Assembly (NCBI GenBank): GCA_964343575.1
Contig: CAYFJV010000001.1
Span: 596,705-660,704, forward strand
Source: an uncultured Methanosarcinales archaeon
GTDB lineage: Archaea; Nanobdellota; Nanobdellia; Woesearchaeales; GW2011-AR9
Length of the DNA stretch: 64,000 nt
Reading direction: 5' to 3'
This document shows, piece by piece, positions 28,591 to 54,124 of this stretch. Position 1 is the stretch's first letter, and the number at the start of each line of letters is the position of its first letter. The notes below the pieces were generated by a model that was not told the origin of the DNA, ran no database searches, and saw only the letters and a program-made list of their open reading frames with translations. Both the position numbers and the translations under genes were made by a program.

Positions 28591-28688
28591 TTTGTTTTTA
28601 CCTCGGTAAAGTATATTCTACCAACACATGTGTAATACTGTCTTAGAACGTGATTCATTTATAAATGTTTCGTTACTAAGGAGTGGTT

Positions 28689-28883: not shown

Positions 28884-29129
28884 ATGAAAGACATGCAAAC
28901 GGTCGAGAAATACCGGCAAAGCCAAGATGAGAAATGGGCAAAAAAAGACAAAGATATCCACCTACAAGTCTGCTTCAAAAAAGCAGTAGATGTGGAAATA
29001 CACCTGATTCAGGGCGCACAAGCACTGAATGAGGCAGAGATTACTGCCAGAATTCTCCAACGCACAGAAGCCTATTTTCTCGGCTATGAGCAGCTCAAGG
29101 CCAAACTCATCGAAGGAGGCCAAGAATGA
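28884..29129 (+). CDS. viral hypothetical protein
   Basis: GAGGTGA SD upstream; 81 aa. Confidence 0.7.
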   Translation: MKDMQTVEKYRQSQDEKWAKKDKDIHLQVCFKKAVDVEIHLIQGAQALNEAEITARILQRTEAYFLGYEQLKAKLIEGGQE

Positions 29130-29305
29130 GCCACGCAGATGAGATCCGCCAAGAGCTTGAGAAAAAGAACAGACAAGCACGGCAGAACGTCAAACGAGAG
29201 AAAGACAACCAAGAATTCCAGGAATACCTAGATGACTTGGGCATAGACAGAATTGACAACCCTACAAAGGATAAGACCCAAAGCGGTCGGAGGTCTAGAA
29301 AATGA
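29126..29305 (+). CDS. viral small hypothetical protein (59 aa)
   Basis: ATGA overlaps at both ends, GGAGG SD; MSHADEIRQELEKKNRQ...; not in track. Confidence 0.6.
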   Translation: MSHADEIRQELEKKNRQARQNVKREKDNQEFQEYLDDLGIDRIDNPTKDKTQSGRRSRK

Positions 29306-29784
29306 AAATGGAAGTATCAGATAAAGTAGCAGTGCCTCAAAGGAGGCCACACATCAAGAAAGGATTCTACCATGCCAGGCTGGTAGAAGTACGTCCAAAG
29401 AAGGCAGAAAGCAAGTACGGCAAAAAAGTCGTGCTCTTATTTGACATCTTGAATGATGCCTTCAAAAAAGAAGGAAAATACTTGCAGCTGGCAACAGAAA
29501 CGTACAGCGAGTACAAGCAAGAGAATGGCTCGTACAGAACAGCAGTAACGCCAAACTCTCGGATAACAAAGATTTTCCAAGCGCTTGGCTGGACGTTTAC
29601 AACGCAAGGTCTTGACACGAATGATTTCATTGGTGCTGAGGCAAAAGTTCTGGTTGATGACTACGACTACGAGTTCACAGACCCTAACACAAACAAGAAA
29701 GAGACACTGAAAGGGTCAACCATTAACGACGTGAACAAGTGGGAAGAAGCACAGCCAGAAGTCAAGGAAGAAGTGGTGAGGTAA
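29302..29784 (+). CDS. putative phage-type ssDNA-binding protein (DUF669-like)
   Basis: KGFYHARLVEV...KVVLLFDI...FIGAEAKVLV pattern, position before helicase. Confidence 0.55.
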   Translation: MKMEVSDKVAVPQRRPHIKKGFYHARLVEVRPKKAESKYGKKVVLLFDILNDAFKKEGKYLQLATETYSEYKQENGSYRTAVTPNSRITKIFQALGWTFTTQGLDTNDFIGAEAKVLVDDYDYEFTDPNTNKKETLKGSTINDVNKWEEAQPEVKEEVVR

Positions 29785-29799
29785 GAGGATTGTTACTAT

Positions 29800-29896
29800 G
29801 AGGTACTACCACTCTGAAATCGGGAACAACACACACAGTAAATCACTTAGTAAAATTAAACGCATAGTTATTCCCGTTTTTTCAACGGTAGTGCTC
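29800..29896. other. imperfect inverted repeat around AT-rich core, candidate replication origin
   Basis: GTACTACC/GGTAGTGC and CGGGAACAAC/GTTATTCCCG arms, upstream of MCM-like gene. Confidence 0.4.
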
Positions 29897-29978
29897 CTTA
29901 GTAATTAATCACGTGAAATGGTGGAGCCTCGTCAACATAGCGAGAGCTTTACAACAAACAACGGAGGTGAAATGAAGA

Positions 29979-32021
29979 ATGAATGAAGATATATTCATGA
30001 GCTTTGCAAGGTTCAAAAAACTTACTCATGTAGATGAACAAGTACGTAAAGCATTAGATGAGAAATGGCTGCAAGCATCATATCAACTCAAACCAGCAAC
30101 AACCCAGAAAAACATCAAAAACAACATTACAGTACTTGAAGAACTACGAGAATTTATACAAAAACAATGTGATAAACATGATCTTGACTTTCCAGATATC
30201 TTCAACTTTATTGACGCCTACAAAAACTCTTCTATAGTCTGCACTAAAACTGTTGAGAAAAGCGATGTTCCAACTGCTATACTCAAATCGTTTAGGAGTA
30301 AGTATAGTCAGAGTAGTATCATTAAGCTTGCTCAGGAATTCAATTATCAACAACTTCGAACTATTACGAAAGAATTGTTTGAGAGAAATAATGCTCTGAT
30401 TTTTCCTATTCCTCAGACTGAAGAGGTTGAGGGTAAGGTTATTGGTGAGGTTGAGCAAAGAAGAATTAAGATTCCTGTTGCCTGGCTTATTGAAATTAAG
30501 ACCAAAGAAGAGTCACTCTTTGTTCCGTACATTTTTGGTGAGAATCTGCCACGAAGAGCAAAAGTTGTTGATGAACTCACTGGAGAGTTTTATCTGTATA
30601 GGTTTTTGACTAAAGATAGCAAAGAGTTTGCTTTGGTGAGTATTGATAAACTCAAGCTTGATGATTATACTGTTAAAGGGTTAGCAATTGATGTCGAAGA
30701 TTCTAAGATTTTAGGAGATGCATATAGACTTTTGAGTAAGTATCCTGTGTTTTTTATTCATACTGCACAAAGCCATATCTGTGAGTTGAAGAATCATGAT
30801 GAGTTGTTTGCGAAGGCTGATGAGTTAAAACTAACTGGCAATAAGTTGTATCAGTACTTATGTAGTTACAAGAAAGATAAAAAGGTACAGTTGCTTGAGC
30901 ATCCAAAATGGTTTTTGAAACTAACAGCAGCATTCTTATTTCACAGCAAGAAAGGAAATATTTGTCCGTATCCTTTGCATTTGTTATGGATTTCTGATCG
31001 TGGAGCAGGCAAAACCACCTACATGGAAAGCTTGCATCAGAAAAGTGGTGAGGCTCAGGAAATTATTGCGGGCAGTTCTTCTACGATCAAATACTTGATT
31101 CCTAGTTTTAAGGAGACAAACAGGCCAGAGATGGGTGCGTTAGCAAAAGCATCACGAATGGTATTTGTGGACGAGTTCTTTAGAATTGTTAGGGTCAATA
31201 ACAAGGATAAGGAAAGTGAATGCGGTCGGATGAATGATTTGCTTGAACATAAAGATCGATTGGCGGGCAGTGGGCAAGGAAGGATTAGAACCAGTATGAC
31301 AGCTCGTTTACTAGCAAGCACGAATCCTATTGCTGGGACTAATACGATTACGAATTTGATTGAGAAATTTGATGATGCATTTCTGAGCAGGTTTTTGATT
31401 TATTATCAAACAGACGATCATGTTAAACTTATTCACAGAAAAAAGAAAGAACCAAAACAATACACAAAAGATTGGATAGAAGTTAATGATTTACTCAGTG
31501 TTCAGGATTACTTGCAGAGTTTTGATGCTTCTTACGAATTGAAACGTTTAGTTGAGATTTATGATAAGTTCTTAGTGTTGATGAGTGAGAAAGTTAAGGG
31601 CGTGTATGAAGCTCGGTACTTGCATCACATGGAATGCCTTATTGACGGTATTATCAAAACAAGATGCTTAACCACCAGAGATAAAACATTCAAAGCGATT
31701 GATGAGGATTACCAAGACCTTGAAGCTATCTGGACGACCATGATTCAAGGATGGTACAAAGAAAAAGTTGACGAGGTCTTGCGTGACCCTACCATTTCTG
31801 TAGAAGCCAAGTATAACATCCTTCCTGAGGAAGCCATGTTTATTCTCAGAAAATTAGCTTCAATGGGTTATAAGGTGAAGTCTCGCGAGTTGCATGAGGC
31901 TTGCAAGAAAGAGATGCGTGGTGGTATGATTTCTATTCAGATGTCGTTACTGAAAGAAGCTGGTTTTGTACGAGATGATGGCGAGTATGTGATCCATCAT
32001 GAGTGGGAGGTGGGATCATGA
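29979..32021 (+). CDS. MCM-like AAA+ replicative helicase
   Basis: HLLWISDRGAGKTT, GALAKA, FVDEF, LASTNP, FLSRF arginine finger. Confidence 0.8.
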   Translation: MNEDIFMSFARFKKLTHVDEQVRKALDEKWLQASYQLKPATTQKNIKNNITVLEELREFIQKQCDKHDLDFPDIFNFIDAYKNSSIVCTKTVEKSDVPTAILKSFRSKYSQSSIIKLAQEFNYQQLRTITKELFERNNALIFPIPQTEEVEGKVIGEVEQRRIKIPVAWLIEIKTKEESLFVPYIFGENLPRRAKVVDELTGEFYLYRFLTKDSKEFALVSIDKLKLDDYTVKGLAIDVEDSKILGDAYRLLSKYPVFFIHTAQSHICELKNHDELFAKADELKLTGNKLYQYLCSYKKDKKVQLLEHPKWFLKLTAAFLFHSKKGNICPYPLHLLWISDRGAGKTTYMESLHQKSGEAQEIIAGSSSTIKYLIPSFKETNRPEMGALAKASRMVFVDEFFRIVRVNNKDKESECGRMNDLLEHKDRLAGSGQGRIRTSMTARLLASTNPIAGTNTITNLIEKFDDAFLSRFLIYYQTDDHVKLIHRKKKEPKQYTKDWIEVNDLLSVQDYLQSFDASYELKRLVEIYDKFLVLMSEKVKGVYEARYLHHMECLIDGIIKTRCLTTRDKTFKAIDEDYQDLEAIWTTMIQGWYKEKVDEVLRDPTISVEAKYNILPEEAMFILRKLASMGYKVKSRELHEACKKEMRGGMISIQMSLLKEAGFVRDDGEYVIHHEWEVGS

Positions 32022-33139
32022 GACTTTTCTGTACTCGTGTAGAACAAGAATGGTGGCAAGGCGAACCCATCTATGAAGAAAACCAATCAGTAGGATTTCA
32101 TCGTTTGTGGTTCTTGGATGTACTAGCTCAAACTACTGATTTCATGGTAAGCCTGCAGAGTAAGGAGGGTTACTTTACTAAACGTGAGTCGTGGAGTAGT
32201 ATGCATCATGAGAAACAACTCAATGCATACACAATTCATAGAACATTGTTGAACAATGAGTTTGTGCTTGATTTTGACGAGCCAGAATATTATCAGAACG
32301 TGTACAGCTTCAAAGTAGTTTACTCCCTACTGCATAAGTTAGGATATGTTCCGTACATCTATTTTTCAGGTAACAAAGGCCTGCATGCTCACTTCTATTT
32401 AGATTACAAAATCCTTGCAGATAAACTTGACATGAAATTACAGAAGAGAATTGTACGACATTTTGCCAGAAAAGAAACGTTCATCAAACGACTCACTGCA
32501 TTTATTGTCAAGAAACTGCAGTACATCTTTCCATCGTATGGTATTGATGGCAGTTTAGTGCATACTAATCATTTGATTCGTTCAGAAGCAAGTTTAAACA
32601 AGCTGGGTTTCAAAACATTTCTTGGTCACACTCCTGAAGATGTTCCAAGTATTGCTCCGATTTACAATCAGGAGAATGGAGTGTACCCTAAATTGCCGTT
32701 TCATCATTACTGCTACTCTGATGCAAAGATCAAATACTCTGTGCCAGTTGATCTGGTAAAATTATGCGAGGAATTTGTACTTACGAAAAATATTGGTGTT
32801 GAGAAAGAAGAAACACGATCACTTAAAGATTTCATGCTGCCAGTCTCAACTACTGAGAAAAGTAAACCTTGCATTCAATTCTTTGAAAGCCCAGCGTTTA
32901 GTCAATGTTCTGAGGGTAGGAAAAGAGCGTTGTTTGTTTTGGCGTCGCATTATTATGATAATCCTGATCAGGTTCGTATCTTGCGAGACTGGAACACCAA
33001 CATTCTCAGTGGTTACTTGCGTGATGATACGATTCTTGCTGCAGCACGAAGCACTACAGGAAAAGTCGGATGCAGATACGTGACATCATTGCTTCATTCT
33101 CTTGGTCAATATGATGTGTGTAAGGGGTGTCAGAAATGA
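32018..33139 (+). CDS. archaeo-eukaryotic primase with PriL-like Cys-rich C-terminus
   Basis: VLDFD, YFSGNKGLHAH, HLIRSEASLN; C-term KPCI...EGRKRALFVLA...GC...CKGC. Confidence 0.8.
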   Translation: MRLFCTRVEQEWWQGEPIYEENQSVGFHRLWFLDVLAQTTDFMVSLQSKEGYFTKRESWSSMHHEKQLNAYTIHRTLLNNEFVLDFDEPEYYQNVYSFKVVYSLLHKLGYVPYIYFSGNKGLHAHFYLDYKILADKLDMKLQKRIVRHFARKETFIKRLTAFIVKKLQYIFPSYGIDGSLVHTNHLIRSEASLNKLGFKTFLGHTPEDVPSIAPIYNQENGVYPKLPFHHYCYSDAKIKYSVPVDLVKLCEEFVLTKNIGVEKEETRSLKDFMLPVSTTEKSKPCIQFFESPAFSQCSEGRKRALFVLASHYYDNPDQVRILRDWNTNILSGYLRDDTILAAARSTTGKVGCRYVTSLLHSLGQYDVCKGCQK

Positions 33140-33348
33140 AAGGAGTGCAACAAACATTAGGCAATTTTGAGAAGTCAAAGAAACAACAACGAAAAACAGT
33201 ACGGTTCATCAAAGCAGTGCCAAGCTTTGTCGATCTTGACCTCAAAGTGTTGGGACCTTTTGAGCCAGGAGATATTCTTACGACGCATATTGACATTGCT
33301 AACTTGCTCATCCTCAAAGGAAGGGCAAAGGAGTTTGATATAGATTAG
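33136..33348 (+). CDS. stand-alone GINS B-domain-like protein
   Basis: VRFIKAVPSFVDLDLKVLGPFEPGDILT...IANLLILKGRAKE matches the recalled C-terminal B-domain pattern of archaeal Gins51. Confidence 0.72.
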   Translation: MKGVQQTLGNFEKSKKQQRKTVRFIKAVPSFVDLDLKVLGPFEPGDILTTHIDIANLLILKGRAKEFDID

Positions 33349-33362: not shown

Positions 33363-33533
33363 ATGGGAGAAGCCAAACAATTGAGACATAAAATTTTGAT
33401 GGACATCAACGCCATGAAGCAAGACAATGCATCATGGAAGAGACAAATAACTGAGAATGAGCTGAGAATTATCCAGCTCGAAAAGATTGCAAACGCACTC
33501 AAATCACTGTGCGATGGAGGTGGACAAGAATGA
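33363..33533 (+). CDS. viral small coiled-coil protein (56 aa)
   Basis: AGGAGG SD; MGEAKQLRHKILMDINAMK...; ATGA overlap with next gene; not in track. Confidence 0.6.
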   Translation: MGEAKQLRHKILMDINAMKQDNASWKRQITENELRIIQLEKIANALKSLCDGGGQE

Positions 33534-33694
33534 AATCGCTCAAACGAAGATATGTGTATGAAGAAACCTATGAAGAAGTCATGCAATGGGCTCGGCAGCA
33601 TGATGTGAGAGCTCCAAATAACAAAAACAACTTTCCTTACTACTTAGCTGAGTATGTGAAAGCGTTGAGGTGTAACGATGTGGCGAGGATATGA
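33530..33694 (+). CDS. viral small hypothetical protein
   Basis: GGAGGTG SD, ATGA overlap. Confidence 0.55.
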   Translation: MKSLKRRYVYEETYEEVMQWARQHDVRAPNNKNNFPYYLAEYVKALRCNDVARI

Positions 33695-34625
33695 AGCACT
33701 CCCCAGCTACTTTGGAGGAAAAAGAAAACTAGCCAGGAAAATCTTAAGCTATGCTAAAGGAGAGGTTTTCATTGACGCTTTTCTTGGCGGTGGCAGTGTT
33801 TCTTTACTTGCTAAAGCAAAAGGGTACAGAGTTATCTGTAATGATATTGCTGAACGATCACGAATAGTAGGCAAAGCAATCATTGAAAACAAGAATACAA
33901 AACTTTCTGATTACGATGTGTATTCTTTATTCAAGAAAACAGAGAATAAATTCATTAGAGATACCTTTCCTAATCTTGCGTTGGAAAAAGATATCCAGTT
34001 CTTGGACAATGCTTTTGCCAATGCTAAGACTGACTTGCAGAAATTATTGTTAATCAAATTCTTGTTCAAATACAAACCCTTTAGCATGCTTTCAAACAAA
34101 GTACCTCGAGACTTGTCTGATTGCAATCTCAAAGTTATTCAACCTCACTTGAAGTACATGTTTAAACCCATAAGGACCCTAAAGCAATTACAGCAGAAGA
34201 TCAATTATGGTATTTTTGATAATGGAAAACAGAACGAGTTTCATCAAAAAGATGTCTTTGAATTCTTGCGAAGCGTGAAAGGAGATACGGTGTACTTTGA
34301 TCCACCGTACGCTGGAAGTCAAAGTTATGAAGAATTCTACAATATCTTAGACAGTATCTTGATGCAGAAAAAGATTCCCGTTACTAAAAGCAAGTTCAAT
34401 TCTAAAGATGCTGAACAATTTCTTCACAAACTTTTGGAAGAGTCAATGCATATTCCTCGAGTTATCTTTAGTTTTGGCGGGCCTAAAATTGACGGCCAGC
34501 ATTTATTGAGGATTGTGCAGGAACATCGCCCAGCTGAACTGCATGAGATTAAGCATAAGTGGGCGATAACTGCAAGTAAGGAGGATATGCAGACGGCAAC
34601 AGAAATATTGGTGGTGACAAAATGA
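33678..34625 (+). CDS. DNA adenine methyltransferase (D12/Dam-like)
   Basis: YFGGKRKL, DAFLGGGSVS, NDI, YFDPPY. Confidence 0.9.
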   Translation: MWRGYEALPSYFGGKRKLARKILSYAKGEVFIDAFLGGGSVSLLAKAKGYRVICNDIAERSRIVGKAIIENKNTKLSDYDVYSLFKKTENKFIRDTFPNLALEKDIQFLDNAFANAKTDLQKLLLIKFLFKYKPFSMLSNKVPRDLSDCNLKVIQPHLKYMFKPIRTLKQLQQKINYGIFDNGKQNEFHQKDVFEFLRSVKGDTVYFDPPYAGSQSYEEFYNILDSILMQKKIPVTKSKFNSKDAEQFLHKLLEESMHIPRVIFSFGGPKIDGQHLLRIVQEHRPAELHEIKHKWAITASKEDMQTATEILVVTK

Positions 34626-35263
34626 AAACAGAAAAAATACAGATGGAACTCATTACAGAAAATGAGTACAACCCAAACGAGATGGATGAAAACAAGTTCA
34701 AAAAATTAGTTCAGAACATTAAGAGAAAAGGATTTCGAAAACCTATCGAAGTTCGTAAGGTAGGTGAGAAATATGTGATTATTGATGGTGCTCACCGCTT
34801 CAAAGCATGCAAACAACTCGGCTACACAGAAGTAGAATGCATTATTGACAATGTGGATGAGATTGAAGCAATGGTTGATACATTGAATGCAAACATTCAC
34901 GGCTCACATAACCCATACAAAGAAGCGCAGATGTTCAAACACATCCATGAACGGTATGCCTTGAAAGATATTGAAAAACTTACGGTGTTTGGCCAGTCTG
35001 AAATTAAAGATAGAATGGAATTACTAAACTTATCTCCTTCTATTCAAAAAGAGTTAGAAAAGCAAGAATTGCAGGAATCAAAAGATGCACCAGTTGTACT
35101 GACATTTATGATTAAGGAGGCTGAGAAGCAAGTGGTCATGAATGCTCTTGGCAGGTGTGAAAGTTCTGATAAGAATAAGGCATTGATTGAGGTATGTCAA
35201 AAATCAATAGAGTGGGGTGAAGGAAGCAATGAGCTTAGAGGAAAGCCGCAGTCAAACAAGTAG
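34622..35263 (+). CDS. ParB/Srx N-terminal domain protein
   Basis: YNPNEM...GFRKPIEV...IIDGAHRFKA. Confidence 0.85.
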   Translation: MKTEKIQMELITENEYNPNEMDENKFKKLVQNIKRKGFRKPIEVRKVGEKYVIIDGAHRFKACKQLGYTEVECIIDNVDEIEAMVDTLNANIHGSHNPYKEAQMFKHIHERYALKDIEKLTVFGQSEIKDRMELLNLSPSIQKELEKQELQESKDAPVVLTFMIKEAEKQVVMNALGRCESSDKNKALIEVCQKSIEWGEGSNELRGKPQSNK

Positions 35264-35825
35264 TCGAAAAAGCAGACTGGACAACTTTGGAGATAAACTG
35301 CACACACTTACTGAAGCAGATCGTGCTAAAGGAAGAAAGGTCAAGTCAGCTAATCGATCACGGGCTAGTGCTTTCAATGCCATGAAAACAGGAAGGTACT
35401 CCAAGCGAGTTCCGCACTGTCATACCTGTATGTTTCGTAGTCAATGCAGTGCGTATGATCCTAAAGACCCCAAAGCAGCATGCAAAGTCATCAATATCCC
35501 TAACTATTTTCATTTGATGTCTGCCTTGACATTTGAGACAGAGGAAGATTTTGATAACTTTGTCAATAAATTAGTGCAGCGGATGTATATTAAGAATTTG
35601 ACGCAGGATGATTGGGAGAAACTCAAAGACTTCCTACTGATTTTCTTGCGTGTGAAAGATACTAAATTTCGCAGGCCACAAGATCAAACAGTCAATGTGC
35701 AAATCAATAATTTTCATACGGAGTTTCAATTGTTTAAGGATGCAACACTTACGGTGTTGAAAAAACATCCTGAAGTGTTAAAGGAATGGAGGTGTGCTCT
35801 TGAATCTGCTAAACAATCCGATTGA
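35229..35825 (+). CDS. putative terminase small subunit
   Basis: NAMKTG (NAxKHG-like), CxxC...C...C cluster, directly upstream of TerL. Confidence 0.6.
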   Translation: MSLEESRSQTSSRKSRLDNFGDKLHTLTEADRAKGRKVKSANRSRASAFNAMKTGRYSKRVPHCHTCMFRSQCSAYDPKDPKAACKVINIPNYFHLMSALTFETEEDFDNFVNKLVQRMYIKNLTQDDWEKLKDFLLIFLRVKDTKFRRPQDQTVNVQINNFHTEFQLFKDATLTVLKKHPEVLKEWRCALESAKQSD

Positions 35826-37263
35826 GGCAGCACTCTTTGAAAGCTTCAAAGAACCAACCTATGACAACTTCATAGGATTTGTCAAGAGATACTTAGCTCC
35901 TCACATGGAACAAGTCTTTGTCGAAGAAGAATATTATAACGAATGGTTTTGTTTAGAACAAAGTAATCAATATAATGCTATTGAAGCTCCCAGAGGCCAT
36001 AGCAAAAGTGAAATATTCACTGTCTGGCTTACTATCTACTATGCTATCTATGACATCAGGCATGAACAAATTGTTTCTTCAGTAAGCGGTGATCAAACTA
36101 ATGAATTATTTGATCGAATAAAATTCTTCTTTTACGTTAGTCCTTATTTGAATCAGCATTTCAAACCTGAAGGAGCAGATAAGAATGTCAGTTTAAGTTC
36201 GTGGAATTCTAAAAAGGTTGTCTTGAAAAATGATTCTATCGTACATGCCAGAAGTATTGCAGGCAAATGGAGAGGACTGCATGTTGACAGAATAGTATGC
36301 GATGATATTATCACTGAAGACAGCACCTTAAGTGATAAGCAGACTATTAACAAATTCTATTCAGCTGTGTTTAACTGTTCTACTGCAAAGAAAGGAACGA
36401 TAACTGTTATCGGAACTCCTTTACGGTTCACTGATATTCTGTATGATTTGAAAGCTAACACACAATTTTCATTTAATGCCTATCCAGCAATTCTTGATTT
36501 TGAAAAGAAGAAAGTGTTATCTCCTCTCAGAAAATCGTTTGAAGAATTAATACGAATCAAAGAAACCATTGGTTCTCTGAGATTTCAGTGCGAGTACATG
36601 CTCAATCCTATTGATGATCATAGTTCAATCTTCAAACGAGACTGGTTACGAAGAGCACAAGATGCAAGTTTAGATTTGATTAAGAATAGAAGTGAGCTAG
36701 ATCGTTTTGAGGTTAGTAATGTGATGTGCGGTGCAGACTTTGCCTTCTCCGAGAGAAAAGGAGCAAATTACTCGGTTTTCTTAACACTTGCTAGACTGCA
36801 CGATGGTCGTTTGTTGCTATGTGATTTTTTCAGAAGAAAAGGAATGACAGGCCAGCAACAAATCGACAAACTCAAAGAATTACATGCCGTCTATGATTAT
36901 GACACGATGGCTTTAGAAGAAAACAGCATCATGGCCATCAGTAAAGATATCCAACGCATTGGTCTGCCTATTAAGACTTTGCGAACAGGAAGCAGAGATA
37001 CAAATAATTCTCTTTCAAAAACAAACGCAATCCTTCGTATGACGACATGGTTTGAGAACAATCAAGTTATCATTCCGTATGCAAGTGATGAAGCTAAAGA
37101 AAAGTACGAGCTCTTGGAACAAGAGTTTCTGAGTTTTGCATTGGAAGATGGGAAGATCATAGAGATTGGTGTACATCCTGATATTCCTATTGCGTTTGTG
37201 TTTGCTGGAGAGGCTGCAAAGAAAGCATCAGCTGATGGTTTTGTAACAAGCATTGTACGATAA
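35794..37263 (+). CDS. terminase large subunit
   Basis: APRGHSKS Walker A, RGLHVDRIVCDD Walker B, IGTP, FQCEY, GADFA, HPD nuclease motifs. Confidence 0.92.
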   Translation: MLLNLLNNPIEAALFESFKEPTYDNFIGFVKRYLAPHMEQVFVEEEYYNEWFCLEQSNQYNAIEAPRGHSKSEIFTVWLTIYYAIYDIRHEQIVSSVSGDQTNELFDRIKFFFYVSPYLNQHFKPEGADKNVSLSSWNSKKVVLKNDSIVHARSIAGKWRGLHVDRIVCDDIITEDSTLSDKQTINKFYSAVFNCSTAKKGTITVIGTPLRFTDILYDLKANTQFSFNAYPAILDFEKKKVLSPLRKSFEELIRIKETIGSLRFQCEYMLNPIDDHSSIFKRDWLRRAQDASLDLIKNRSELDRFEVSNVMCGADFAFSERKGANYSVFLTLARLHDGRLLLCDFFRRKGMTGQQQIDKLKELHAVYDYDTMALEENSIMAISKDIQRIGLPIKTLRTGSRDTNNSLSKTNAILRMTTWFENNQVIIPYASDEAKEKYELLEQEFLSFALEDGKIIEIGVHPDIPIAFVFAGEAAKKASADGFVTSIVR

Positions 37264-37279
37264 AAAGGAGGTGATTATC

Positions 37280-37642
37280 ATGAAGTTTGACCCAAACACA
37301 TTAAACAGGCGGGATTCAAAAATACTCAAAGCATTGCTGTATTTTTATCCTCGAAAGAAAAGTGCAGCACAGATGTACACGTACATCTCAAAGTACTCTC
37401 AGAAGACTGGACTTAAAGGAGCAAAAGCACTAGGACATATTCTTGTTAGGTTTCCTGTAAAGTCGGAACTGACAGTGGCCAGTAGCATGACAAAGAACAG
37501 GATCGTTAATTGCAGGTATGTTCGCCTGTATGTACTAAAGGATTCGTTTGTGAAGAAATATTATAAAGAAAAAAATGACTTGATCAAATTGGGGAAAAGG
37601 AAGTCTAAAAATGTCAAAAGAAAAAAGTCCTCCAGAAAGTAA
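37280..37642 (+). CDS. viral basic hypothetical protein
   Basis: AGGAGGTGA SD before ATG 37280. Confidence 0.6.
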   Translation: MKFDPNTLNRRDSKILKALLYFYPRKKSAAQMYTYISKYSQKTGLKGAKALGHILVRFPVKSELTVASSMTKNRIVNCRYVRLYVLKDSFVKKYYKEKNDLIKLGKRKSKNVKRKKSSRK

Positions 37643-39674
37643 ACCCTTGATGATTCTCTCGCAAGTCAATGAAGGGGTTAGGCAAACAGCGATCACCATA
37701 GATTATTCTAGTGTTAATTATGGGAAGCTTGAAAGTATTTACAAGACGGAGCAGATGGTCTTTCAAGCAGTCAACATCATCAGCACCTTTGCCATATCAA
37801 AAGGATATGAATACATTGTGAGTGAGAATACTGATGAACAGTTAGAAATGCGTGATCAGATATCTTCGTTTGATGCAAAAGTTGGGCTTTCTAAATTATT
37901 GACTGATGTTGTTCGTCACTTACACATTTACGGCAATGCGTATCTTGAGATTGTGTATTCTAAAACTGACCAGAAGAAAGTTGTCGGATTAGTGTTAATT
38001 GACCCTAAGACAATTATGTTTAAGAAAAAGTCTACTGGTGAAATTGATTTTGATGAAAGCGGAAGCATAAAAGGCTACGTGCAAACAGTTAATGCCAAGA
38101 AAGTGGATTTAAATCCTGAACAAATCATACATTTTAGAATAAATACGATTGCTGATTCTTTAACTGGCACTGGCATTATTGAACCGTTAGTGAAAGTTAT
38201 CGAGGCAAAACGTAATATTGAGTTAGGTTTAGCTGAAGCAGTGTATCGTCATGGGTTTCCACAATTTCATGTTAAGCTGGGTGATGTTGATCATCAACCA
38301 ACAGCTGATCAAGTAACTGAAGAGAGTGAGAAATACAAGCGCATTAATTCAAAATCAGAATTTGTCACACCATACTATTATGACATCAAAGTTTTAGAAG
38401 CTCCATCATTAAAAGGCGGCGAGAATTACTTGAAATATTTCATTGATCAGATCGTGTCTGGTACTGGCGTTCCCCAATCCATTCTGTTAGGTTCTGGTGA
38501 AGGAAGTAACAGAGCAACATCTTTTACTCAACAGCAGAATTTCTTTTTGTATATTGGTGGCGTGCAGATGCTACTTGCTGAAACATTGCAGAAGTGTTTG
38601 TTTACTAAAGTGCTTGGTGTTGAGGAAAGCCCTGTGTCTATGATGTTTAATTCTTTGCAAACCAAAACTGACCTTGAGTTAGCGGAAGAAAGGGAAATCT
38701 ATCTGCAAAACGGTGTTTTGACTCCTGATGAGGTCAGGCAAGAGATGGGATTGGAACCTATTTCTCCACCCCCAACGGATGAGTCCATCTCTGGTTCATC
38801 AGGAGCTTTTCTTTTTTCAGAAAAAGAATTCCTCAATGATGCAGAATTAATGCTTGATGCGGATGAAGATTTTCAAGCAAGGGAGTATTCTTTGAAAGAA
38901 GAAGAGTTTGGAGGTGTACTGAAGGAATTGAGCAGACCAATACGTTCACGCTTTATACGAGACCAACAAATTCTCACTCACAGATTGAATAAAATTATGA
39001 ATAGGTCTATGACTAAGGTATTGAAAGAGATTGATGACAAGCTTAGTGATGAACAAACACTTGCAGCTGAAGACATACTTGTTGACGCTGAACTTCTTGC
39101 TCCTGAACGAGATGCTCTTGTGGCAGCAGTCTTTATCGACTCTAAGAAAAAGTTTAAACAAGGCATCAAACTTGGAGAGGATTTCATAAAGAAGAAACAT
39201 CCAGTGGTTGCAGGAATTAAAGTAAAAAGCACTGTAAATGAACAAGCAGTCAGAGCTCTTGACTTACGATCATCTCAACTGGCTAAATCCTTACACGATG
39301 ATTTATTGAGTGCAACACAAACAGCCATACGTGAAGGATTGCAAGCACGAAAAGGAGCAAAGCAACTCAAAGAAGACATCGAGAAAGTCTTTGAAAAGTT
39401 TGGAGGAACTTCTGGACGATTTAACAGAGTAGGCACACGAGCCGAACTCATAGCAAGAACAGAACTGCACCGAGCATTTATTGAAGGCAACCTGCAAAGC
39501 TTCAAAGAACTAAAAGTTGAGAAGTTACGAATGATTATTAACGTTGGAGCGTGTGAAGAGTGTATTGATGTTGCAGCTGATAGCCAAGCAGTACCAGTGC
39601 AATTATCAGAAGGAATTATCCCAGTTCATCCACGATGCAGGTGTGGTTGGGTTGCTGCGAAGATTGGTGAATAA
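37611..39674 (+). CDS. portal protein fused to Mu gpF-like head morphogenesis domain
   Basis: YGNAY, IIHFR, GVPQSILLG, GVLTPDEVRQEMGLEP; C-term RAELIARTE...CEEC...PVHPRCRC. Confidence 0.88.
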   Translation: MSKEKSPPESKPLMILSQVNEGVRQTAITIDYSSVNYGKLESIYKTEQMVFQAVNIISTFAISKGYEYIVSENTDEQLEMRDQISSFDAKVGLSKLLTDVVRHLHIYGNAYLEIVYSKTDQKKVVGLVLIDPKTIMFKKKSTGEIDFDESGSIKGYVQTVNAKKVDLNPEQIIHFRINTIADSLTGTGIIEPLVKVIEAKRNIELGLAEAVYRHGFPQFHVKLGDVDHQPTADQVTEESEKYKRINSKSEFVTPYYYDIKVLEAPSLKGGENYLKYFIDQIVSGTGVPQSILLGSGEGSNRATSFTQQQNFFLYIGGVQMLLAETLQKCLFTKVLGVEESPVSMMFNSLQTKTDLELAEEREIYLQNGVLTPDEVRQEMGLEPISPPPTDESISGSSGAFLFSEKEFLNDAELMLDADEDFQAREYSLKEEEFGGVLKELSRPIRSRFIRDQQILTHRLNKIMNRSMTKVLKEIDDKLSDEQTLAAEDILVDAELLAPERDALVAAVFIDSKKKFKQGIKLGEDFIKKKHPVVAGIKVKSTVNEQAVRALDLRSSQLAKSLHDDLLSATQTAIREGLQARKGAKQLKEDIEKVFEKFGGTSGRFNRVGTRAELIARTELHRAFIEGNLQSFKELKVEKLRMIINVGACEECIDVAADSQAVPVQLSEGIIPVHPRCRCGWVAAKIGE

Positions 39675-46249: not shown

Positions 46250-47164
46250 ATGACTAGCCAGCTTGTTGAAGAGATTAATAGTTTTATCAGCACTCTTGAT
46301 GAAACACCTGAAGCCTTGAATTCTAAGTATTTGATAGACCATTACATTGCCTGCAATGATACAACAGTTCAAGAGATTAATCAATTCATTGAAGCTATTC
46401 ACGATTTTGAAGACGATGAAGAGCAAGCAAAAGAAGAAGAGAAACTCGGTGAGCTTTGGGAAGAAACAGAAAACGAAATTGTTTGCTTACTTGAGGAACC
46501 TTCTTCATTTCTTGGAAACACAATCAAGAGGAGAAGTTTAGGCAATGGCATCTCCATTGTTTTAGGAGTTCTAAAAGAGAGTGTTGCTCCTCGTCTTGCG
46601 ATTCAAGGATTTCGTTTCAAAAAAGATGAACCTTACAACTGGACAATTGATAGAGCCAGGGCATGGGTTGAGGGAAGAAACGTTTCTGAAAACCAAAAGC
46701 TCAGTAAAAACTTGCAGTACGTTAAGCTCAAAGATGTTAAGATTAAGCAAGTCTTGCAGGAAGGAACTCAGCTAAGAATAGCCGGTATTGCTATTAGTGA
46801 AGGGGCATGGAATAATATTTTTTATCCTGCCAAAGAGTTAGAGCGAGCTTACAAAACACTAGAGGGTAAGCCGTTACGTATTGATCATTCGTCGAGTTCA
46901 CGTGATATTGTTGGTAAAGTCATCAAGTCAACATACAACCGTAAACAGAAGTGGATTGAGTTTGAAGCAATCGTTACTGACAAGGATATTGCGCAGAAGT
47001 TGCTTGATGGACTGATTGATTCGGTAAGTGTTGGCGTGCTTATTGACAAGGAAGAGAAAGATGGCATTGATGTTGCTCATAATTTGGAATTTAAGGAATT
47101 GAGTTTGGTAGATGATCCTGCATGTAAAGATGCAAAAGTAAATCCACTAAAGAGGAGGAGATGA
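46250..47164 (+). CDS. prohead maturation protease
   Basis: GKPLRIDH, IVGKV, DSVSVG, FKELSLVDDPAC; position before scaffold/MCP. Confidence 0.8.
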   Translation: MTSQLVEEINSFISTLDETPEALNSKYLIDHYIACNDTTVQEINQFIEAIHDFEDDEEQAKEEEKLGELWEETENEIVCLLEEPSSFLGNTIKRRSLGNGISIVLGVLKESVAPRLAIQGFRFKKDEPYNWTIDRARAWVEGRNVSENQKLSKNLQYVKLKDVKIKQVLQEGTQLRIAGIAISEGAWNNIFYPAKELERAYKTLEGKPLRIDHSSSSRDIVGKVIKSTYNRKQKWIEFEAIVTDKDIAQKLLDGLIDSVSVGVLIDKEEKDGIDVAHNLEFKELSLVDDPACKDAKVNPLKRRR

Positions 47165-47171
47165 TCGTAAA

Positions 47172-47633
47172 ATGGACGAACCAAAAGAAATGAAACAAGC
47201 AAAATCTCTTTTGAAGAAAGCCTCTGACGAACTTGCCGCTAAAAACAAAGAGATCTCGCAATTAGCAGAAGAGGTTACTGCTAAAGACAAGTTGATCTCA
47301 GATTTGACAGCCAAGCAAGAACAACTCAGTAAAGAGTTTGAGGCAGTCTCAAAAGAGTTGAAACATATTAAACAAGCAGCAAGAGACGTTGTTCTCAACA
47401 AACAAATCGAAGCTGAGGAAAAGCTTGGTATTCTTGAAGTGTCAAAAGAAGAACGACTCAAAGAATTGCAAGCTTTGGATGAAGCTGGAGGCTTTGACTT
47501 GTACGCAAAACAAACCAATAAGATGCTTGAACTGCACCAAAGTATTGGTGATAGAAAAACGCTAGTGAACAACTCCAACCAATCACTAGACAGAAAGCAG
47601 GAGATTGCACAAGCGTTGGGGATGGCATTGTAG
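47172..47633 (+). CDS. capsid scaffolding protein (coiled coil)
   Basis: heptad K/E-rich helix; position. Confidence 0.6.
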   Translation: MDEPKEMKQAKSLLKKASDELAAKNKEISQLAEEVTAKDKLISDLTAKQEQLSKEFEAVSKELKHIKQAARDVVLNKQIEAEEKLGILEVSKEERLKELQALDEAGGFDLYAKQTNKMLELHQSIGDRKTLVNNSNQSLDRKQEIAQALGMAL

Positions 47634-47646
47634 AGGTGAAACAAAA

Positions 47647-48021
47647 ATGGTGTACGATATCATGATTGATGACGGAAGAAATCCAAGTATGCTCGTTGCA
47701 GCAGCAGATCTGAAAAAAGGAGAGTTTGTAGGCTTAGACCTGCAACCAGCACTCGCCCAAGCAGATGTTTTGGGAGTGTGTTTGAGAGATTCAGATCAAA
47801 ACCAATCAATATCACTTGGAGCGTTAGGAACATTCTACCTTGACGTAGAAGTTGCAGCAAGTGCAACTCTTAACGTTGGTGATGAGTTGGAAGTCAAAGA
47901 CGCAAGCACGTTGCAGGCAAAAACCACAGGAGTAGTCGTAGCAAAAGCATACGAGAAAGTTGACAACAGTGCCGGAGGCAGTGCGGTTACCAAAAAAATT
48001 CCTGTGAAAATAATCAAGTAA
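47647..48021 (+). CDS. capsid decoration/cement protein (DUF2190-like)
   Basis: AAADLKKGEFVG...VLGV...LNVGDEL...VAKAYE; GAGGTGA SD. Confidence 0.6.
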   Translation: MVYDIMIDDGRNPSMLVAAADLKKGEFVGLDLQPALAQADVLGVCLRDSDQNQSISLGALGTFYLDVEVAASATLNVGDELEVKDASTLQAKTTGVVVAKAYEKVDNSAGGSAVTKKIPVKIIK

Positions 48022-48039
48022 AATGGAGGAGAGAGAACA

Positions 48040-48846
48040 ATGAAATCAATGCAAGAACTGTTTTCCACACAAGATGCCGCACCTCTCATCAAGGAAGTCA
48101 TTGACTCCAACGTGTTCAAAGTAGCAACGAGAGAACGAGTGGGCAGAAAGTTTGTAAGAGTGATCACTCTTAATGAGGGTTCAGCCTTAAAAATTCCCAA
48201 GATGGGAGAAGGACAAGCCTACGTCATCCCAGAACTAGGTCAAATTCCATTGGATGTAAGCGACTTCACTGAAGTTGTCGTTACACCATTCAAGATAGGG
48301 AAAGCCTTTGCTGTAGCAAAAGAATCAATTGAAGACTCGGCATTTGACGTGGTAAGACTCAAAGCTGATATGGCTGCAGAAGATGTAGCAAGAAAAGAAG
48401 ATAAGGAAATCTTCAGAGTATTAGAAAACACTACAAATACAGTCAGTCCAAAAACACCAGGAGAATTCGTGCAAGAAGACGTCGTCACGTTAAGAAATGC
48501 TGTGAACAAGAATAACTACAAAGCCAAATGGCTTATTGCACACCCTGATGACTTGGCACGTCTAGAAAAGGACCTTATTGGCAAAGGCTACAAGGCATTT
48601 GACAGGCTTGATGAGGAAGGAATCCTTGGCAATGTAGCTGGCTTACAAGTCCTTGAAACCACTGCACTTAACCCAGGAACGATCCTTGCTCTTGACAGTA
48701 GAGCTGTGGTGTTAGTGGAGAGACGTCCGCTCTCTATTGAGAATTTCACTGACCCGTTGAGAGATTTGGCAGGGGGAGTGACCATCACAGAGAGAGTAGC
48801 ACCAGCCGTATTAGACGATAATGCTGTCGCAAAGATGACCTTGTAA
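48040..48846 (+). CDS. major capsid protein (HK97 fold)
   Basis: IPELGQIP, VTPFKIG, KESIEDS, ARKEDKEIF, WLIAHP, G.VAGLQV. Confidence 0.85.
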   Translation: MKSMQELFSTQDAAPLIKEVIDSNVFKVATRERVGRKFVRVITLNEGSALKIPKMGEGQAYVIPELGQIPLDVSDFTEVVVTPFKIGKAFAVAKESIEDSAFDVVRLKADMAAEDVARKEDKEIFRVLENTTNTVSPKTPGEFVQEDVVTLRNAVNKNNYKAKWLIAHPDDLARLEKDLIGKGYKAFDRLDEEGILGNVAGLQVLETTALNPGTILALDSRAVVLVERRPLSIENFTDPLRDLAGGVTITERVAPAVLDDNAVAKMTL

Positions 48847-48874
48847 AGCTAAGCACAGCAAGGAGGAAGGATTA

Positions 48875-49621
48875 ATGGACATCAGTAGCTTGAAGACTCA
48901 GATAATCACAGAATCGAACAAATTCAGGTTAGCTCCGAAGCTCCTCCAACTGCAGAAAGTATCCGAAGGTGCGGCCACAAAAGTCACCAAAATCAAGAAT
49001 GTGAATGGTGCAGTAGTTCCTACTTTAGGATCTGCTCCCATTTCTCTTTTTGATGCAGATTCAGTTATTGTATTTTTTCTTACTCTTAAACTTCCGATCA
49101 TGTTTTCTGCTGAAGAATTTGAAGACAACGCTCTTAATGAGGTTCTTCAAAAATCATTCAAACAAACATTCCATTTAGCAAATACTGAAAACAGGCTCGT
49201 AGTTGATTCATTAATTGCTGGTGCTGGCAAAACTATTACCTCCCAAAGCAAACCTGATATAAGGGAGACTCCCGTTCTCGATAATTTTCTTGCTGCCATG
49301 AAGTTTATTGAAGAGAATGGGTACTCTCCCACTACAATTTTAGTGAACGCTGGTATTGCAGAATCATTACGGCAACGAGAAGAGTTAAAAGAAAAACTTG
49401 TCTCGTATGCTACTGAAGTTATCATTAACGTTGCAGTTCCAGATGATACAGTGATTATTCTTGATAGCAATCATGCAGGTCTTTTCTTAGAGAGAGTTCC
49501 TCTTGAGATTAATGACTTTGCAGATCACTGGAACGGCAAGAAAGGATTCATCTTGAGGGAACGAGTAGCTCCTGTTATCACTGATGGAAATGCTGTGGCG
49601 GTGATCAAGAATGGGTCTTGA
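48875..49621 (+). CDS. second HK97-fold capsid protein paralogue
   Basis: C-term LDS...LERVPLEINDFAD...LRERVAPVITDGNAVA aligns with MCP C-term. Confidence 0.75.
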   Translation: MDISSLKTQIITESNKFRLAPKLLQLQKVSEGAATKVTKIKNVNGAVVPTLGSAPISLFDADSVIVFFLTLKLPIMFSAEEFEDNALNEVLQKSFKQTFHLANTENRLVVDSLIAGAGKTITSQSKPDIRETPVLDNFLAAMKFIEENGYSPTTILVNAGIAESLRQREELKEKLVSYATEVIINVAVPDDTVIILDSNHAGLFLERVPLEINDFADHWNGKKGFILRERVAPVITDGNAVAVIKNGS

Positions 49622-50399
49622 GATTGAATACCTAGAACAATTGAAAGCAGCTTCAGATGCAATCAAAGCAGTAGCTGAAGCCATCACAGTTCAAGGAGAT
49701 GGAAGTCTTAATGTCAATACTCAAAATCCAGTCGATATAGTAGCTATTAAAGACGGAGCTGATGATAATAAGAAAGCTCAAGTAAATGCAGCAGGCAGAC
49801 TTCTTGTTGAAACTGAACAACAAGGTACAAATGATACTATTATAGTCGATCCAGATGATAACAATAAGAAAGCAAAAGTTGATGCTAATGGCAGACTTTT
49901 AGTAACAAGTGATGGTGGCGGAACTTCAGGATCAGTAACAATAGAAGATGCCAATGATTCGAATAAGAAAGTATTTGTTGATGCTTCAGGAAGATTGCTT
50001 GTAGCTTTACCTCCTCCTTCTCCTCCAGTCGGAACAACTGAAGTGAAGCAGACAAAGTTTGACGACGTTAATGGAAACAGTGCTGATTATGATTACTATG
50101 TTATTCCAAGTGGAGAAACTGTTCGTATTCAGAAACTTCTTGGATCATCTGAAGATAGGGGCAAGGATACGTATGTAGCGTTATGGTTAGACAATAACGG
50201 TGATACTCCTACTGGAAGTCAACGTGATGGACATCCAAACTGGGTTCTTATTGCAATGGCATTCACCAATATTAGCAATGTGAATTTTGATTTGAATGAA
50301 GAGATCATTGGAGATGGGACAAAAAGAGTAGTGTTGCATCGTCGAAGAATGGAAGCAGGAAGACGATTAGTATTTGCGAGGTGGCAAGGGTATTACTAA
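49611..50399 (+). CDS. putative head fibre / virion structural protein with internal repeats
   Basis: three copies of I.D..D.NKK..V.A.GRLLV. Confidence 0.55.
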   Translation: MGLEIEYLEQLKAASDAIKAVAEAITVQGDGSLNVNTQNPVDIVAIKDGADDNKKAQVNAAGRLLVETEQQGTNDTIIVDPDDNNKKAKVDANGRLLVTSDGGGTSGSVTIEDANDSNKKVFVDASGRLLVALPPPSPPVGTTEVKQTKFDDVNGNSADYDYYVIPSGETVRIQKLLGSSEDRGKDTYVALWLDNNGDTPTGSQRDGHPNWVLIAMAFTNISNVNFDLNEEIIGDGTKRVVLHRRRMEAGRRLVFARWQGYY

Positions 50400-50400
50400 C

Positions 50401-50793
50401 ATGACAGCAGAAAAATACAAAGGAAAAGTAGAACTCTATGGACCGAACAATCCAATCAACCTCCCAACAAGCTACACCACAATCTTTGATATTATAGGAG
50501 AGGGTTTTATTGACATGCTCAAACTTTCTTTCACTAGCATTTCAAGAGTTTGGGTCAAAGTAACTATCGACAGTAATGTCTATTATGAGTTTGATCTTGC
50601 AGATCTGAGAAATAAAGTCAATCTCTCTCGTGACGAACAAGACACATATCTAAGTACTGCAAGAAATTCATTTGCAGATTCGTATCCTGTCCCCTTATTC
50701 TTTGAAGACTCTCTCAAAGTTGAAGTCAAAAAATCATCGGGTAACAGGAAGATCAAAGGAGGAATTATCAGGTATAGAATGAGGGGAGCGTAA
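50401..50793 (+). CDS. viral beta-rich hypothetical protein
   Basis: ATG 50401 directly after previous stop. Confidence 0.6.
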   Translation: MTAEKYKGKVELYGPNNPINLPTSYTTIFDIIGEGFIDMLKLSFTSISRVWVKVTIDSNVYYEFDLADLRNKVNLSRDEQDTYLSTARNSFADSYPVPLFFEDSLKVEVKKSSGNRKIKGGIIRYRMRGA

Positions 50794-51030
50794 ATGGTAA
50801 CTGTACAAGAAAAAATGGATACAATTGAAGCAGGGCCTAATTACGTCAGTGGTTCATTGATCATCAAAAGCAGTGATGATAGAGGAGTTGTCTTGAAATG
50901 GCTTGAACAATCCAATGGAGTTGCTGAAAGAAAAGAGCATTTCATCCAATTAGATGAAGATGAATCAAACTTACCATTAGAAGAACGAACAGCAATCAAT
51001 GATATTGAAATAGAACCGCCAAGTGGGTGA
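50794..51030 (+). CDS. viral hypothetical protein
   Basis: 78 aa, coupled. Confidence 0.55.
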   Translation: MVTVQEKMDTIEAGPNYVSGSLIIKSSDDRGVVLKWLEQSNGVAERKEHFIQLDEDESNLPLEERTAINDIEIEPPSG

Positions 51031-51036
51031 ACAACA

Positions 51037-51195
51037 GTGAGTAATTGGCAATACAAAGTGATCAGTAAACGAGTTAAGAATATTTCAGAGAAAGCACTCG
51101 ATAAACTAGGCAATAATGGATGGGAGCTCATATTCATGACCCAGCTTTGGAATGGCAAAGTTATTGCGGTCTTCAAAAGAGAAATTACGAGGTGA
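51037..51195 (+). CDS. DUF4177-like small protein (52 aa)
   Basis: NWQYKV...LDKLGNNGWELI...VFKR; GGTGA SD, GTG start; not in track. Confidence 0.65.
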   Translation: MSNWQYKVISKRVKNISEKALDKLGNNGWELIFMTQLWNGKVIAVFKREITR

Positions 51196-51198
51196 ACT

Positions 51199-51423
51199 GT
51201 GGCAAGTAAGAACCAACCAGAGTATGACCCAAAGACAAGGGTAAAAGCTGCAGCTAAGCGATTCTTGAAAGGATTGCTCGCTACGCTTCTCGTTGCAGGA
51301 GTGCAATATGCAGCAGAGTTTGTGCAAGCAAGTGCAGACTTATTCCCTGCAGAATCAGCTTTGACAGGACTTGTTGTGTCTGTTCTCTTAGCATTAGAGA
51401 AGGGCCTACAAAAAGCAAAATGA
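51199..51423 (+). CDS. holin-like two-TM protein
   Basis: KRFLKGLLATLLVAG / ALTGLVVSVLLALEK, GAGGTGA SD. Confidence 0.55.
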   Translation: MASKNQPEYDPKTRVKAAAKRFLKGLLATLLVAGVQYAAEFVQASADLFPAESALTGLVVSVLLALEKGLQKAK

Positions 51424-51499
51424 AACTGAGGGAGAGAATGTCGATTGAGTTTATGGTCTTAATTGGATGGATCATGATGAAATACAAACAAGTGAAAAA

Positions 51500-51988
51500 A
51501 TGGCTCAAACAGAATATACAACGGTAGCTATTGCGAAAGCAAGAGTTGGAGAGAATAATGTTAGCTCTGACATTCAGGACAGTGAGATCACTCAATGGAT
51601 TCAAGAAGCCAGCAACTTCATAGATTTATGTACGAAGAAAATAGGGAACAGCTGGCAACCAACTGATACATTATATCCAACAGTGCAACAGATTGTTACA
51701 GATCTGGTTGTGATCAAACTGCTTCTGAGAATGAGCGGTGCTGGAAGCGGAACAACATCAGGACTCTCTTATAGAGTTGGTGATTTTTCAGTGGACAAGA
51801 AGAATGTGGACTCATCTTCAGTAAAGGAAATCGCTATCTATGAGAAGAGTGCAAAAAATAGTTTAGCTGAATTGAAAGATCATCTCAGCGTTGATAAGAC
51901 TACAAATTTTATCGGTGCTTCTGTAATTGAAGGTGACCCGTCCCCTCAAACCAACTTCGGAAGCAATGCTCCACAACGTGAGGAATAA
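51500..51988 (+). CDS. head-tail adaptor
   Basis: YTTVA...DSEITQWIQEASNFID...SYRVGDFSV; position. Confidence 0.7.
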   Translation: MAQTEYTTVAIAKARVGENNVSSDIQDSEITQWIQEASNFIDLCTKKIGNSWQPTDTLYPTVQQIVTDLVVIKLLLRMSGAGSGTTSGLSYRVGDFSVDKKNVDSSSVKEIAIYEKSAKNSLAELKDHLSVDKTTNFIGASVIEGDPSPQTNFGSNAPQREE

Positions 51989-52362: not shown

Positions 52363-52363
52363 T

Positions 52364-53125: not shown

Positions 53126-53163
53126 ACATTGAAAGTACAACTTGGAATATATAAAAGCTCCTG

Positions 53164-53185
53164 AAATAATATTAAGAAAAAAATA
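53164..53185 (+). promoter_or_regulatory. viral promoter-like motif copy 2
   Basis: AAATAATATTAAGAAAAAAATA starting 35 nt before ATG 53199. Confidence 0.7.
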
Positions 53186-53198
53186 CAGTCCTCATTCT

Positions 53199-53561: not shown

Positions 53562-53604
53562 AATCTTAGCAAGCGTCTCTTCAAGAGTGAGGAGGGCTAA
53601 AGGA

Positions 53605-54066: not shown

Positions 54067-54124
54067 GTTGTGGTGAATTGAGTTGAAACCAAAACAAAAT
54101 CAAAACAACGGAGGATGATTAACC

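Follow-up and report, generated by a model that had tools for sequence, protein, structure and literature searches.

A stand-alone Gins51 B-domain in the helicase-primase operon of a Woesearchaeales tailed provirus

Background

The Woesearchaeales tailed proviruses (WATPVs; PMC11705971) include the described elements closest to the one reported here, a tailed provirus of about 58 kb found in a Woesearchaeales-type host. Its replication module lies at 29302-33348 of a 64,000-nucleotide stretch of contig CAYFJV010000001.1 (assembly GCA_964343575.1, positions 596,705 to 660,704, forward strand), called here the window. Shared gene order, head and tail genes and integration bounded by att sites make this provirus a further member of the WATPVs; two members of the group (L021 and L025, PMC11705971) have the same gene order, with MCM helicases 60% and 58% identical to the one found here. 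The new provirus is 58 kb long and carries other cargo.

These two, QMQO01000002_pro and QZIT01000006_pro, are annotated in Table S5 of PMC11705971, where gene 6 of both is listed as GINS (HHpred match to 7E15_B, 99.6-99.7%); in QMQO01000002_pro, genes 4 and 5 are given as MCM and primase, and are followed by GINS_B_archaea_Gins51. The same table labels a 159-aa gene resembling single-stranded DNA-binding proteins (SSB-like) as "DNA polymerase", from a PHROG hit, an assignment excluded by its size. The main text of that article does not contain the word GINS, and the lone-B-domain nature of the gene goes unremarked. The first-pass annotation of the window, made from the sequence alone, took the arrangement to be undescribed; the genes do stand in the published table, and the claim holds as far as the silence of the main text goes.

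According to PMC9023282, the isolated C-terminal B-domain of T. kodakarensis Gins51 (Gins51C) is sufficient for binding DP1N, the N-terminal domain of the PolD subunit DP1. DP1N is bound via L1, beta2, beta3 and alpha1, and GAN via beta4; the two partners are held simultaneously, on opposite faces, and either V148D or V170D abolishes DP1N binding. The viral protein described below belongs to the same domain family as the one in the DP1N-Gins51C-GAN complex (7E15, PMC9023282), and retains the core and some of the DP1 face. It differs in having no helical A-domain, and hence no GINS tetramer, in a virus-specific surface, in an acidic C-terminal tail, and in a host where no GAN was found.

The C-terminal domain of PriS, as described in PMC2861644, has the same fold, and the viral B-domain likewise comes right after a primase; the latter is encoded by a separate gene downstream of a fused PriS-PriL, and its sequence is of the Gins51 type. 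The fused PriS-PriL reported for DPANN archaea (PMC3914693) has co-linear AEP and PriL-C-like halves, as has the viral primase. The latter is the shorter of the two, at 373 aa against 495, and has diverged far; where the first catalytic Asp is expected, only 21 of 48 homologues have D. Comparable replication modules, based on MCM or on a primase/helicase, are reported for archaeal viruses and integrated elements (PMC4889955, PMC6563490, bioRxiv 2025.02.15.638363, PMC12934983); the word GINS is absent from the available text of all four. It is also absent from PMC8651126, a weak blank, as MCM and primase have no matches there either. In a literature search covering titles and the beginning of abstracts, with subscription papers and preprint supplements mostly outside it, no report on a viral stand-alone B-domain was found. 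What is new here is a B-domain fixed in one viral clade and absent from its relatives, under selection and with a surface specific to the virus.

Results

Organization of the replication operon

The four open reading frames (ORFs) previously proposed for 29302-33348 are present on the plus strand. They are listed here with the neighbouring small ORFs:

28884..29129, plus strand: conserved viral ORF, 81 aa, at the same position across the close clade; no Pfam family
29126..29305, plus strand: conserved viral ORF, 59 aa, by conservation in relatives
29302..29784, plus strand: DUF669-like protein, putative single-stranded DNA binding, 160 aa, by Atlas match
29785..29978, no strand: intergenic region of 194 bp with an imperfect inverted repeat, candidate origin; arms conserved
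29979..32021, plus strand: divergent MCM-family helicase, 680 aa, by Foldseek, hhalign and invariant ATPase residues
32018..33139, plus strand: fused AEP primase with a PriL-C-terminal-like domain (DPANN type), 373 aa, by fold and hhalign
33136..33348, plus strand: stand-alone Gins51 B-domain, 70 aa, by PF22090 and profile matches to 3ANW/7E15
33363..33533, plus strand: coiled-coil-like ORF, 56 aa, following the B-domain in the clade, by conservation
33530..33694, plus strand: conserved ORF, 54 aa, by conservation in relatives

ATGA stop/start overlaps connect MCM to primase (32018-32021) and primase to B-domain (33136-33139), as had been noticed. The SSB-like gene and MCM are uncoupled, being separated by the 194-bp gap at 29785-29978; the ATGA overlap of the SSB-like gene is with the ORF upstream. 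Within the gap, the arms of the inverted repeat keep their position in 9 aligned loci, and vary together among relatives. A single-strand hairpin was rejected for this region, its folding energy being no better than that of shuffled sequences (z -0.68).

Identity of the 70-aa protein

The 70-aa protein matches the Pfam family PF22090 (Gins51_C) over residues 22-66, with 29.9 bits (cut-off 27) and E 4.7e-7, and no other family at E<=0.05; it is thus a Gins51 B-domain alone, as first described. The comparison with GINS structures, run as a profile search of the PDB, matched Gins51: a profile of 37 B-domain sequences finds the T. kodakarensis protein in 3ANW (E 9.7e-9) and in 5GHR, 5GHS and 7E15 (E 5.8e-8), while the single 70-aa sequence has no match in the PDB. 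Relatives at E<=0.001 are mostly C-termini of Gins51 proteins of 200-280 aa (150 of 211 matches listed, as 50%-identity representatives).

The absence of the helical A-domain is confirmed by the size of the protein, by the lack of a PF05916 match and by the flanking ORFs, which reach at most 3.3% against the A-domain profile. A GINS split over adjacent genes was rejected, as the 56-aa and 54-aa ORFs fail that profile (hhalign 0.2% and 3.3%, respectively). Two further candidates were discarded: a PCNA-binding motif at the N-terminal end of the B protein, where a QxTL-like stretch is seen in some copies and missing in others, and domain repeats in giant proteins (P0007, P0008 and others), which are TPR or other repeat artefacts.

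Distribution and selection

In order to follow the B-domain in related elements, loci were collected by MCM scans, for a total of 102 (13 viral, 9 from genomes and 80 from metagenomes, the best of 168 matches there); 19 are close (at least 50% identity) and 83 distant. To be counted, a locus had to include the entire primase gene and 250 bases or more 3' of it; loci that were too short, or in which no primase was recognised, were dropped. Of the close loci counted, all 14 (8 distinct primases) have a B-domain after the primase; of the distant ones, whose MCM and primase are homologous, none of 33 does (27 distinct; at least 2 kb of downstream sequence in 25). It is therefore a clade-specific addition, not required by this helicase-primase pair. 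A quick MCM tree groups the B-positive rows in a single clade (SH-aLRT 100); L028, its one additional member, is truncated within the primase.

A protein search returned 34 matches of 35-139 aa, of which 33 are stand-alone domains of the viral type, 65-80 aa long. The viral B-domain is under purifying selection: for seven genes (21 pairs), pN ranges between 0.07 and 0.31, and pS between 0.38 and 1.07. Eleven viral B-domains form one clade within 87 cellular Gins51 domains (support 100/98, from 59 columns, the bootstrap not being settled). Named homologues come from Woesearchaeota records, and some differently labelled bins may be misbinned. No match to the B protein was found among GenBank phages. 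Single-sequence scans of viral contigs for MCM and primase returned nothing, alignments being required. There are hints of stand-alone B-domains among other viruses as well, in the form of Atlas clusters of 62-84 aa that match PF22090.

The distant loci carry MCM, primase and a longer SSB-like protein, with a tail of about 90 aa. In the distant clade (L008, L012 and L068, for example) an ORF of about 60 aa, which we take to be Sm-like in appearance, lies upstream of MCM, and many of its MCMs end in a short Q-x-x-L/M-F-like tail, not seen in the B-positive clade. These extras (ORF, MCM tail and SSB-like tail) may perhaps do the recruiting there. An intermediate MCM group (L037-L039, 41-48% identity) is followed by TerS-like genes, and no primase was recognised nearby.

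Conserved surfaces of the viral B-domain

Residue equivalences were counted on the alignment to T. kodakarensis Gins51, in which V148 corresponds to viral F31 and V170 to D53. F31, the equivalent of the hot-spot V148, is present in 33 of 33 viral copies; V28 (94%), P29 (85%), A55 (100%) and L58 (91%) are also kept in this set. Twelve further positions (Q18, T21, D33, L48, R49, I52, N56, L60, K65, F67, D68 and D70) are fixed or almost so in the virus, being found in 85-100% of the 33 viral sequences and in 0-21% of 87 cellular ones. Examples are L48 (100% vs 2%), R49 (97% vs 0%), K65 (100% vs 8%) and F67 (100% vs 5%). Such virus-specific residues match the expectation for a new partner. Residues 46-51 probably lie on beta4, the presumed GAN strand, and are altered in the virus.

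The accompanying helicase, primase and DUF669-like protein

The predicted fold of the 680-aa protein (pLDDT 87) has MCM subunits as its top Foldseek matches, with E 1e-16 over more than 600 columns; the model supports an MCM fold with N-terminal OB and AAA+ domains, and alignment to the host MCM by hhalign gives 93.6%. G344, K345, D398, E399, R471 and R546 are invariant in 57 of 57 homologues; from the alignment to the host MCM, we take them to be the Walker A and B, arginine finger and sensor 2 residues. The Pfam MCM family PF00493 is not matched, because the protein is too divergent; only AAA is found, at 20.2 bits, below cut-off. No CxxC zinc motif was seen in the sequence.

For the 373-aa primase (predicted fold, pLDDT 87), residues from about 6 to 252 form an AEP fold (Z 11-12.8), while 273-368 resemble PriX with a middling Z of 6.4. 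Residues 63-344, spanning both halves, align with the fused PriS-PriL of the host lineage (hhalign 96.8%, E 2.8e-10), which bears out the earlier assignment to the DPANN-type fusion; the primase of the host genome is likewise a PriS-PriL fusion. D87, H123 and D177 are conserved in 48 of 48 homologues. The C-terminal domain appears PriL-CTD-like, with four cysteines, C285, C352, C368 and C371 (in 40, 39, 23 and 37 of the 48, respectively), a putative Fe-S site.

The SSB-like gene bears the weakest of the proposed labels. Its 160-aa product is assigned to DUF669 by Atlas language-model features alone (0.95), and this match to DUF669 clusters is what upholds the label; no Pfam family is above cut-off in 34 homologues, and there is no PDB sequence match. 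DUF669 presumably denotes a single-stranded DNA-binding protein. The gene accompanies MCM and primase in both close and distant clades.

Replisome of the host

The host genome (G000; 1.21 Mb, 95% complete), which contains the window, encodes MCM, a full Gins51 and DP1, including its N-terminal helical domain. GAN/Cdc45, searched as DHH_CID, was not found in it, nor in 24 of 24 other genomes of the family; outside the family, 11 of 16 genomes have a match. The one DHH protein of the host is of a 367-aa type without DHH_CID, and tblastn with 8 GAN sequences gave only partial, weak matches to this genome (E 0.006 and 0.096). Among the five other bins bearing the provirus, three have a DHH_CID protein. 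The whole Woesearchaeales-type family keeps Gins51 with its B-domain, MCM and DP1 while GAN/Cdc45 is not found.

Other contexts of the B-domain

In the order, PF22090 is matched in 357 of 401 genomes, with more than one match in 6 of the genomes listed; the tally includes 14 unpublished genomes, none of them among these six, and they enter into no other result. Besides G000, the multi-match genomes are three with this provirus, one with a partial duplicate next to its Gins51, and G017. The latter carries a different, small element:

L167, 8204-12769: small integrative element with integrase, AAA+ protein, AEP-like protein, stand-alone B-domain and two small DNA-binding-type ORFs

Its B-domain (60 aa; 23.7 bits against PF22090, below cut-off) sits on a long branch apart from the viral clade, and its AAA+ (405 aa) and AEP-like (214 aa) proteins resemble those of the virus only faintly (hhalign 52% and 13%). 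This single example suggests a second, independent capture, as judged from sequence comparison. In a further protein, P0060 (408 aa), an N-terminal Gins51 B-domain is fused to MCM AAA+ and lid domains. A stretch resembling the B-domain also lies close to the C-terminus of a membrane-anchored protein of the solute-binding type (L161 1-1845).

Extent and gene content of the provirus

Terminase, portal, capsid and tape-measure families are found by the Pfam scan from 28660 onward. Other features of the provirus within the window are as follows:

28660..28672, plus strand: attL core, left provirus end, 13 bp; similarity to relatives starts here, and flanks differ
33678..39674, plus strand: adenine methylase, ParB-like, TerS-like, ORF, large terminase and portal, start of the virion/packaging block (Pfam PF02086, PF02195, PF03237, PF04860)
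46250..64000, plus strand: head and tail genes, with the major capsid at 48040-48846 and the tape measure at 55484-59602

A variant copy of the core at G000 C2:155 gives a provirus span of 58,265 bp, joined via 55-bp contig overlaps (C1 to reversed C4, and reversed C4 to C2). The same core bounds three relatives fetched in full, where the two copies are 52-55 kb apart. The core opens with a TATA-box-like sequence, and host flanks differ from genome to genome; promoter-like AT-rich sites may be the integration targets. No tRNA integration site was found in the window, and a relaxed intron scan was rejected, its output being noise.

The provirus extends beyond the window onto contig C4, which encodes Cdc6/Orc1 and two tyrosine recombinases (integrases), present also in the three relatives; at the right end the two recombinases point away from each other. 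A scan of 65 provirus ORFs, in which the smallest ones were only partly covered, revealed no family of replicative polymerases or clamps; one cargo ORF has a Pol-beta nucleotidyltransferase domain.

Nine non-viral-looking ORFs at 39762-46175, from portal to prohead protease, mark a variable cargo site, vacant in L004 and differently filled in relatives. Defence cargo (Dnd/Pbe, DISARM-like, restriction-modification) lies between Cdc6 and the integrases in L170, L173 and L175-L176, two of these being already published. At 48040-49621 there is a tandem pair of capsid-like genes (268 and 248 aa), both named major capsid proteins for a relative in the published table. Among host genes, the adenylosuccinate-synthetase-like protein at 23943-25826 has 627 aa against the usual 430 or so, and is under NCBIfam cut-offs.

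Discussion

The reading that we favour, and to which we give somewhat less than an even chance, is that the B-domain is an adaptor, tethering host PolD, by the N-terminus of DP1, to the viral primase or helicase; every binding step in it we infer. After excision, the virus would load its own MCM, probably with its own Cdc6/Orc1, and its own fused primase would make primers, the polymerase being borrowed from the host. The stand-alone B-domain would have been captured once from a cellular Gins51. One of its faces would still bind the N-terminal domain of host DP1, and the other, remodelled along strand 46-52 and in the C-terminal tail K65-D70, would bind a viral partner, most likely the primase translationally coupled to it. 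Such an adaptor would replace the GINS-GAN bridge without a helical A-domain.

This reading is favoured because neither polymerase nor clamp was found in the 65 ORFs, host DP1N is present and isolated Gins51C binds DP1N; because F31 is kept in 33 of 33 copies, the surface is newly fixed and the viral domains form one clade (100/98); and because the B-domain follows the primase in 14 of 14 loci, and an AEP gene in an unrelated element, while a B-MCM fusion (P0060) exists. Since helicase and primase are brought along, no polymerase was found and the lone B-domain is selected, recruitment of the host polymerase, as first suggested, remains the natural reading. The Cdc45 half of that suggestion does not stand for this host: the B-domain is kept where GAN is apparently missing, which indicates PolD and a viral protein as partners.

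Several observations weigh against the adaptor. The module can work without a B-domain, which is missing from all 33 testable loci of the sister viruses in spite of their homologous MCM and primase. The hot-spot V170 aligns with viral D53, and V170D is a binding-abolishing change, an objection softened by D or E being found there in 77% of the cellular set and in the host; the virus has also lost two residues close to the DP1 face that are conserved in cellular domains, Y39 (79%) and G33 (84%). The viral B-domain is just 34% identical to that of its own host, and 54% to the best cellular ones. Complex predictions for primase, host DP1 1-66 and B-domain 12-70 scored 0.28 and 0.23 against a mark of 0.32, which was calibrated on two chains, whereas this run had three and controls were not folded, so that they are evidence neither way. 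The dispensability of the B-domain in sister viruses (0/33), the Cdc6/Orc1 of the provirus and the shared fold of the PriS C-terminal domain had all been overlooked by the first-pass annotation.

That shared fold (PMC2861644), together with the ATGA coupling to the primase and the position after an AEP gene in two unrelated elements, would agree with a primase accessory, in which a PriS C-terminal domain acts in trans to stabilise or regulate the viral primase, with no host partner. We consider it unlikely, as the sequence is of the Gins51 type, with best cellular matches to C-termini of Gins51 of about 200-280 aa, F31 on the DP1 face is kept in 33 of 33, and homologous primases do without a B-domain in 27 distinct loci. 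As a decoy, the free domain would titrate host PolD (and GAN, where present) off host GINS, stalling host forks and making polymerase available to the virus. Lone Gins51C can bind DP1N, its co-expression is reported to have blocked yeast growth in a two-hybrid test (PMC9023282), and the viral domain has no A-domain for joining a GINS tetramer. A pure decoy, though, would not need the new conserved surface fixed in the virus; one-to-one translational coupling to the primase would fit a stoichiometric partner better than a titrating inhibitor, and the provirus is stably integrated in several genomes, so this explanation seems to us rather improbable.

The version first put forward, a mini-GINS recruiting host GAN/Cdc45 and PolD into a CMG-like helicase on the viral MCM, could draw on the simultaneous binding of GAN and DP1N by Gins51C (PMC9023282), and on the DHH_CID protein in 3 of 5 other provirus-bearing bins. 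For this host, neither recruitment nor sequestration of GAN/Cdc45 finds support: a DHH_CID match is missing from the host and from all 24 other family members, as opposed to 11 of 16 genomes elsewhere that have one, so that no GAN was found available for a GAN-MCM-GINS assembly, and the strand presumed to bind it is changed in the virus. We give this version little credence. A role outside fork assembly, such as binding neighbouring small viral proteins or regulation, with the fold as a reusable interaction module, would account for the B-domain-like stretch in the solute-binding-type protein of L161 and for the two small conserved ORFs always found 3' of the B-domain; it is hard to reconcile with a place inside the replication operon in two independent elements and with a Gins51 origin, and appears to us a slim prospect.

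Going beyond the adaptor in this provirus, it is conceivable, if doubtful, that mobile elements in DPANN archaea have separated the B-domain from Gins51 on two or more occasions, turning it into a clamp from primase or helicase to PolD, with neither GINS tetramer nor GAN, in a host family whose own replisome is seemingly GAN-free too. The broad strategy, own helicase and the rest borrowed from the host, is not new, and a published table already lists the genes; the provirus belongs to a catalogued group and carries an undiscussed variant of borrowing the host replisome. The apparent loss of GAN/Cdc45 across a host family is of interest in itself. If the adaptor reading is true, a domain of 55 residues would be enough to couple a foreign helicase or primase to PolD; it would reveal the way in which small viruses of archaea get hold of the host polymerase, and would offer a minimal system for B-domain function apart from the tetramer, as well as a peptide-sized probe or inhibitor of PolD-GINS coupling.

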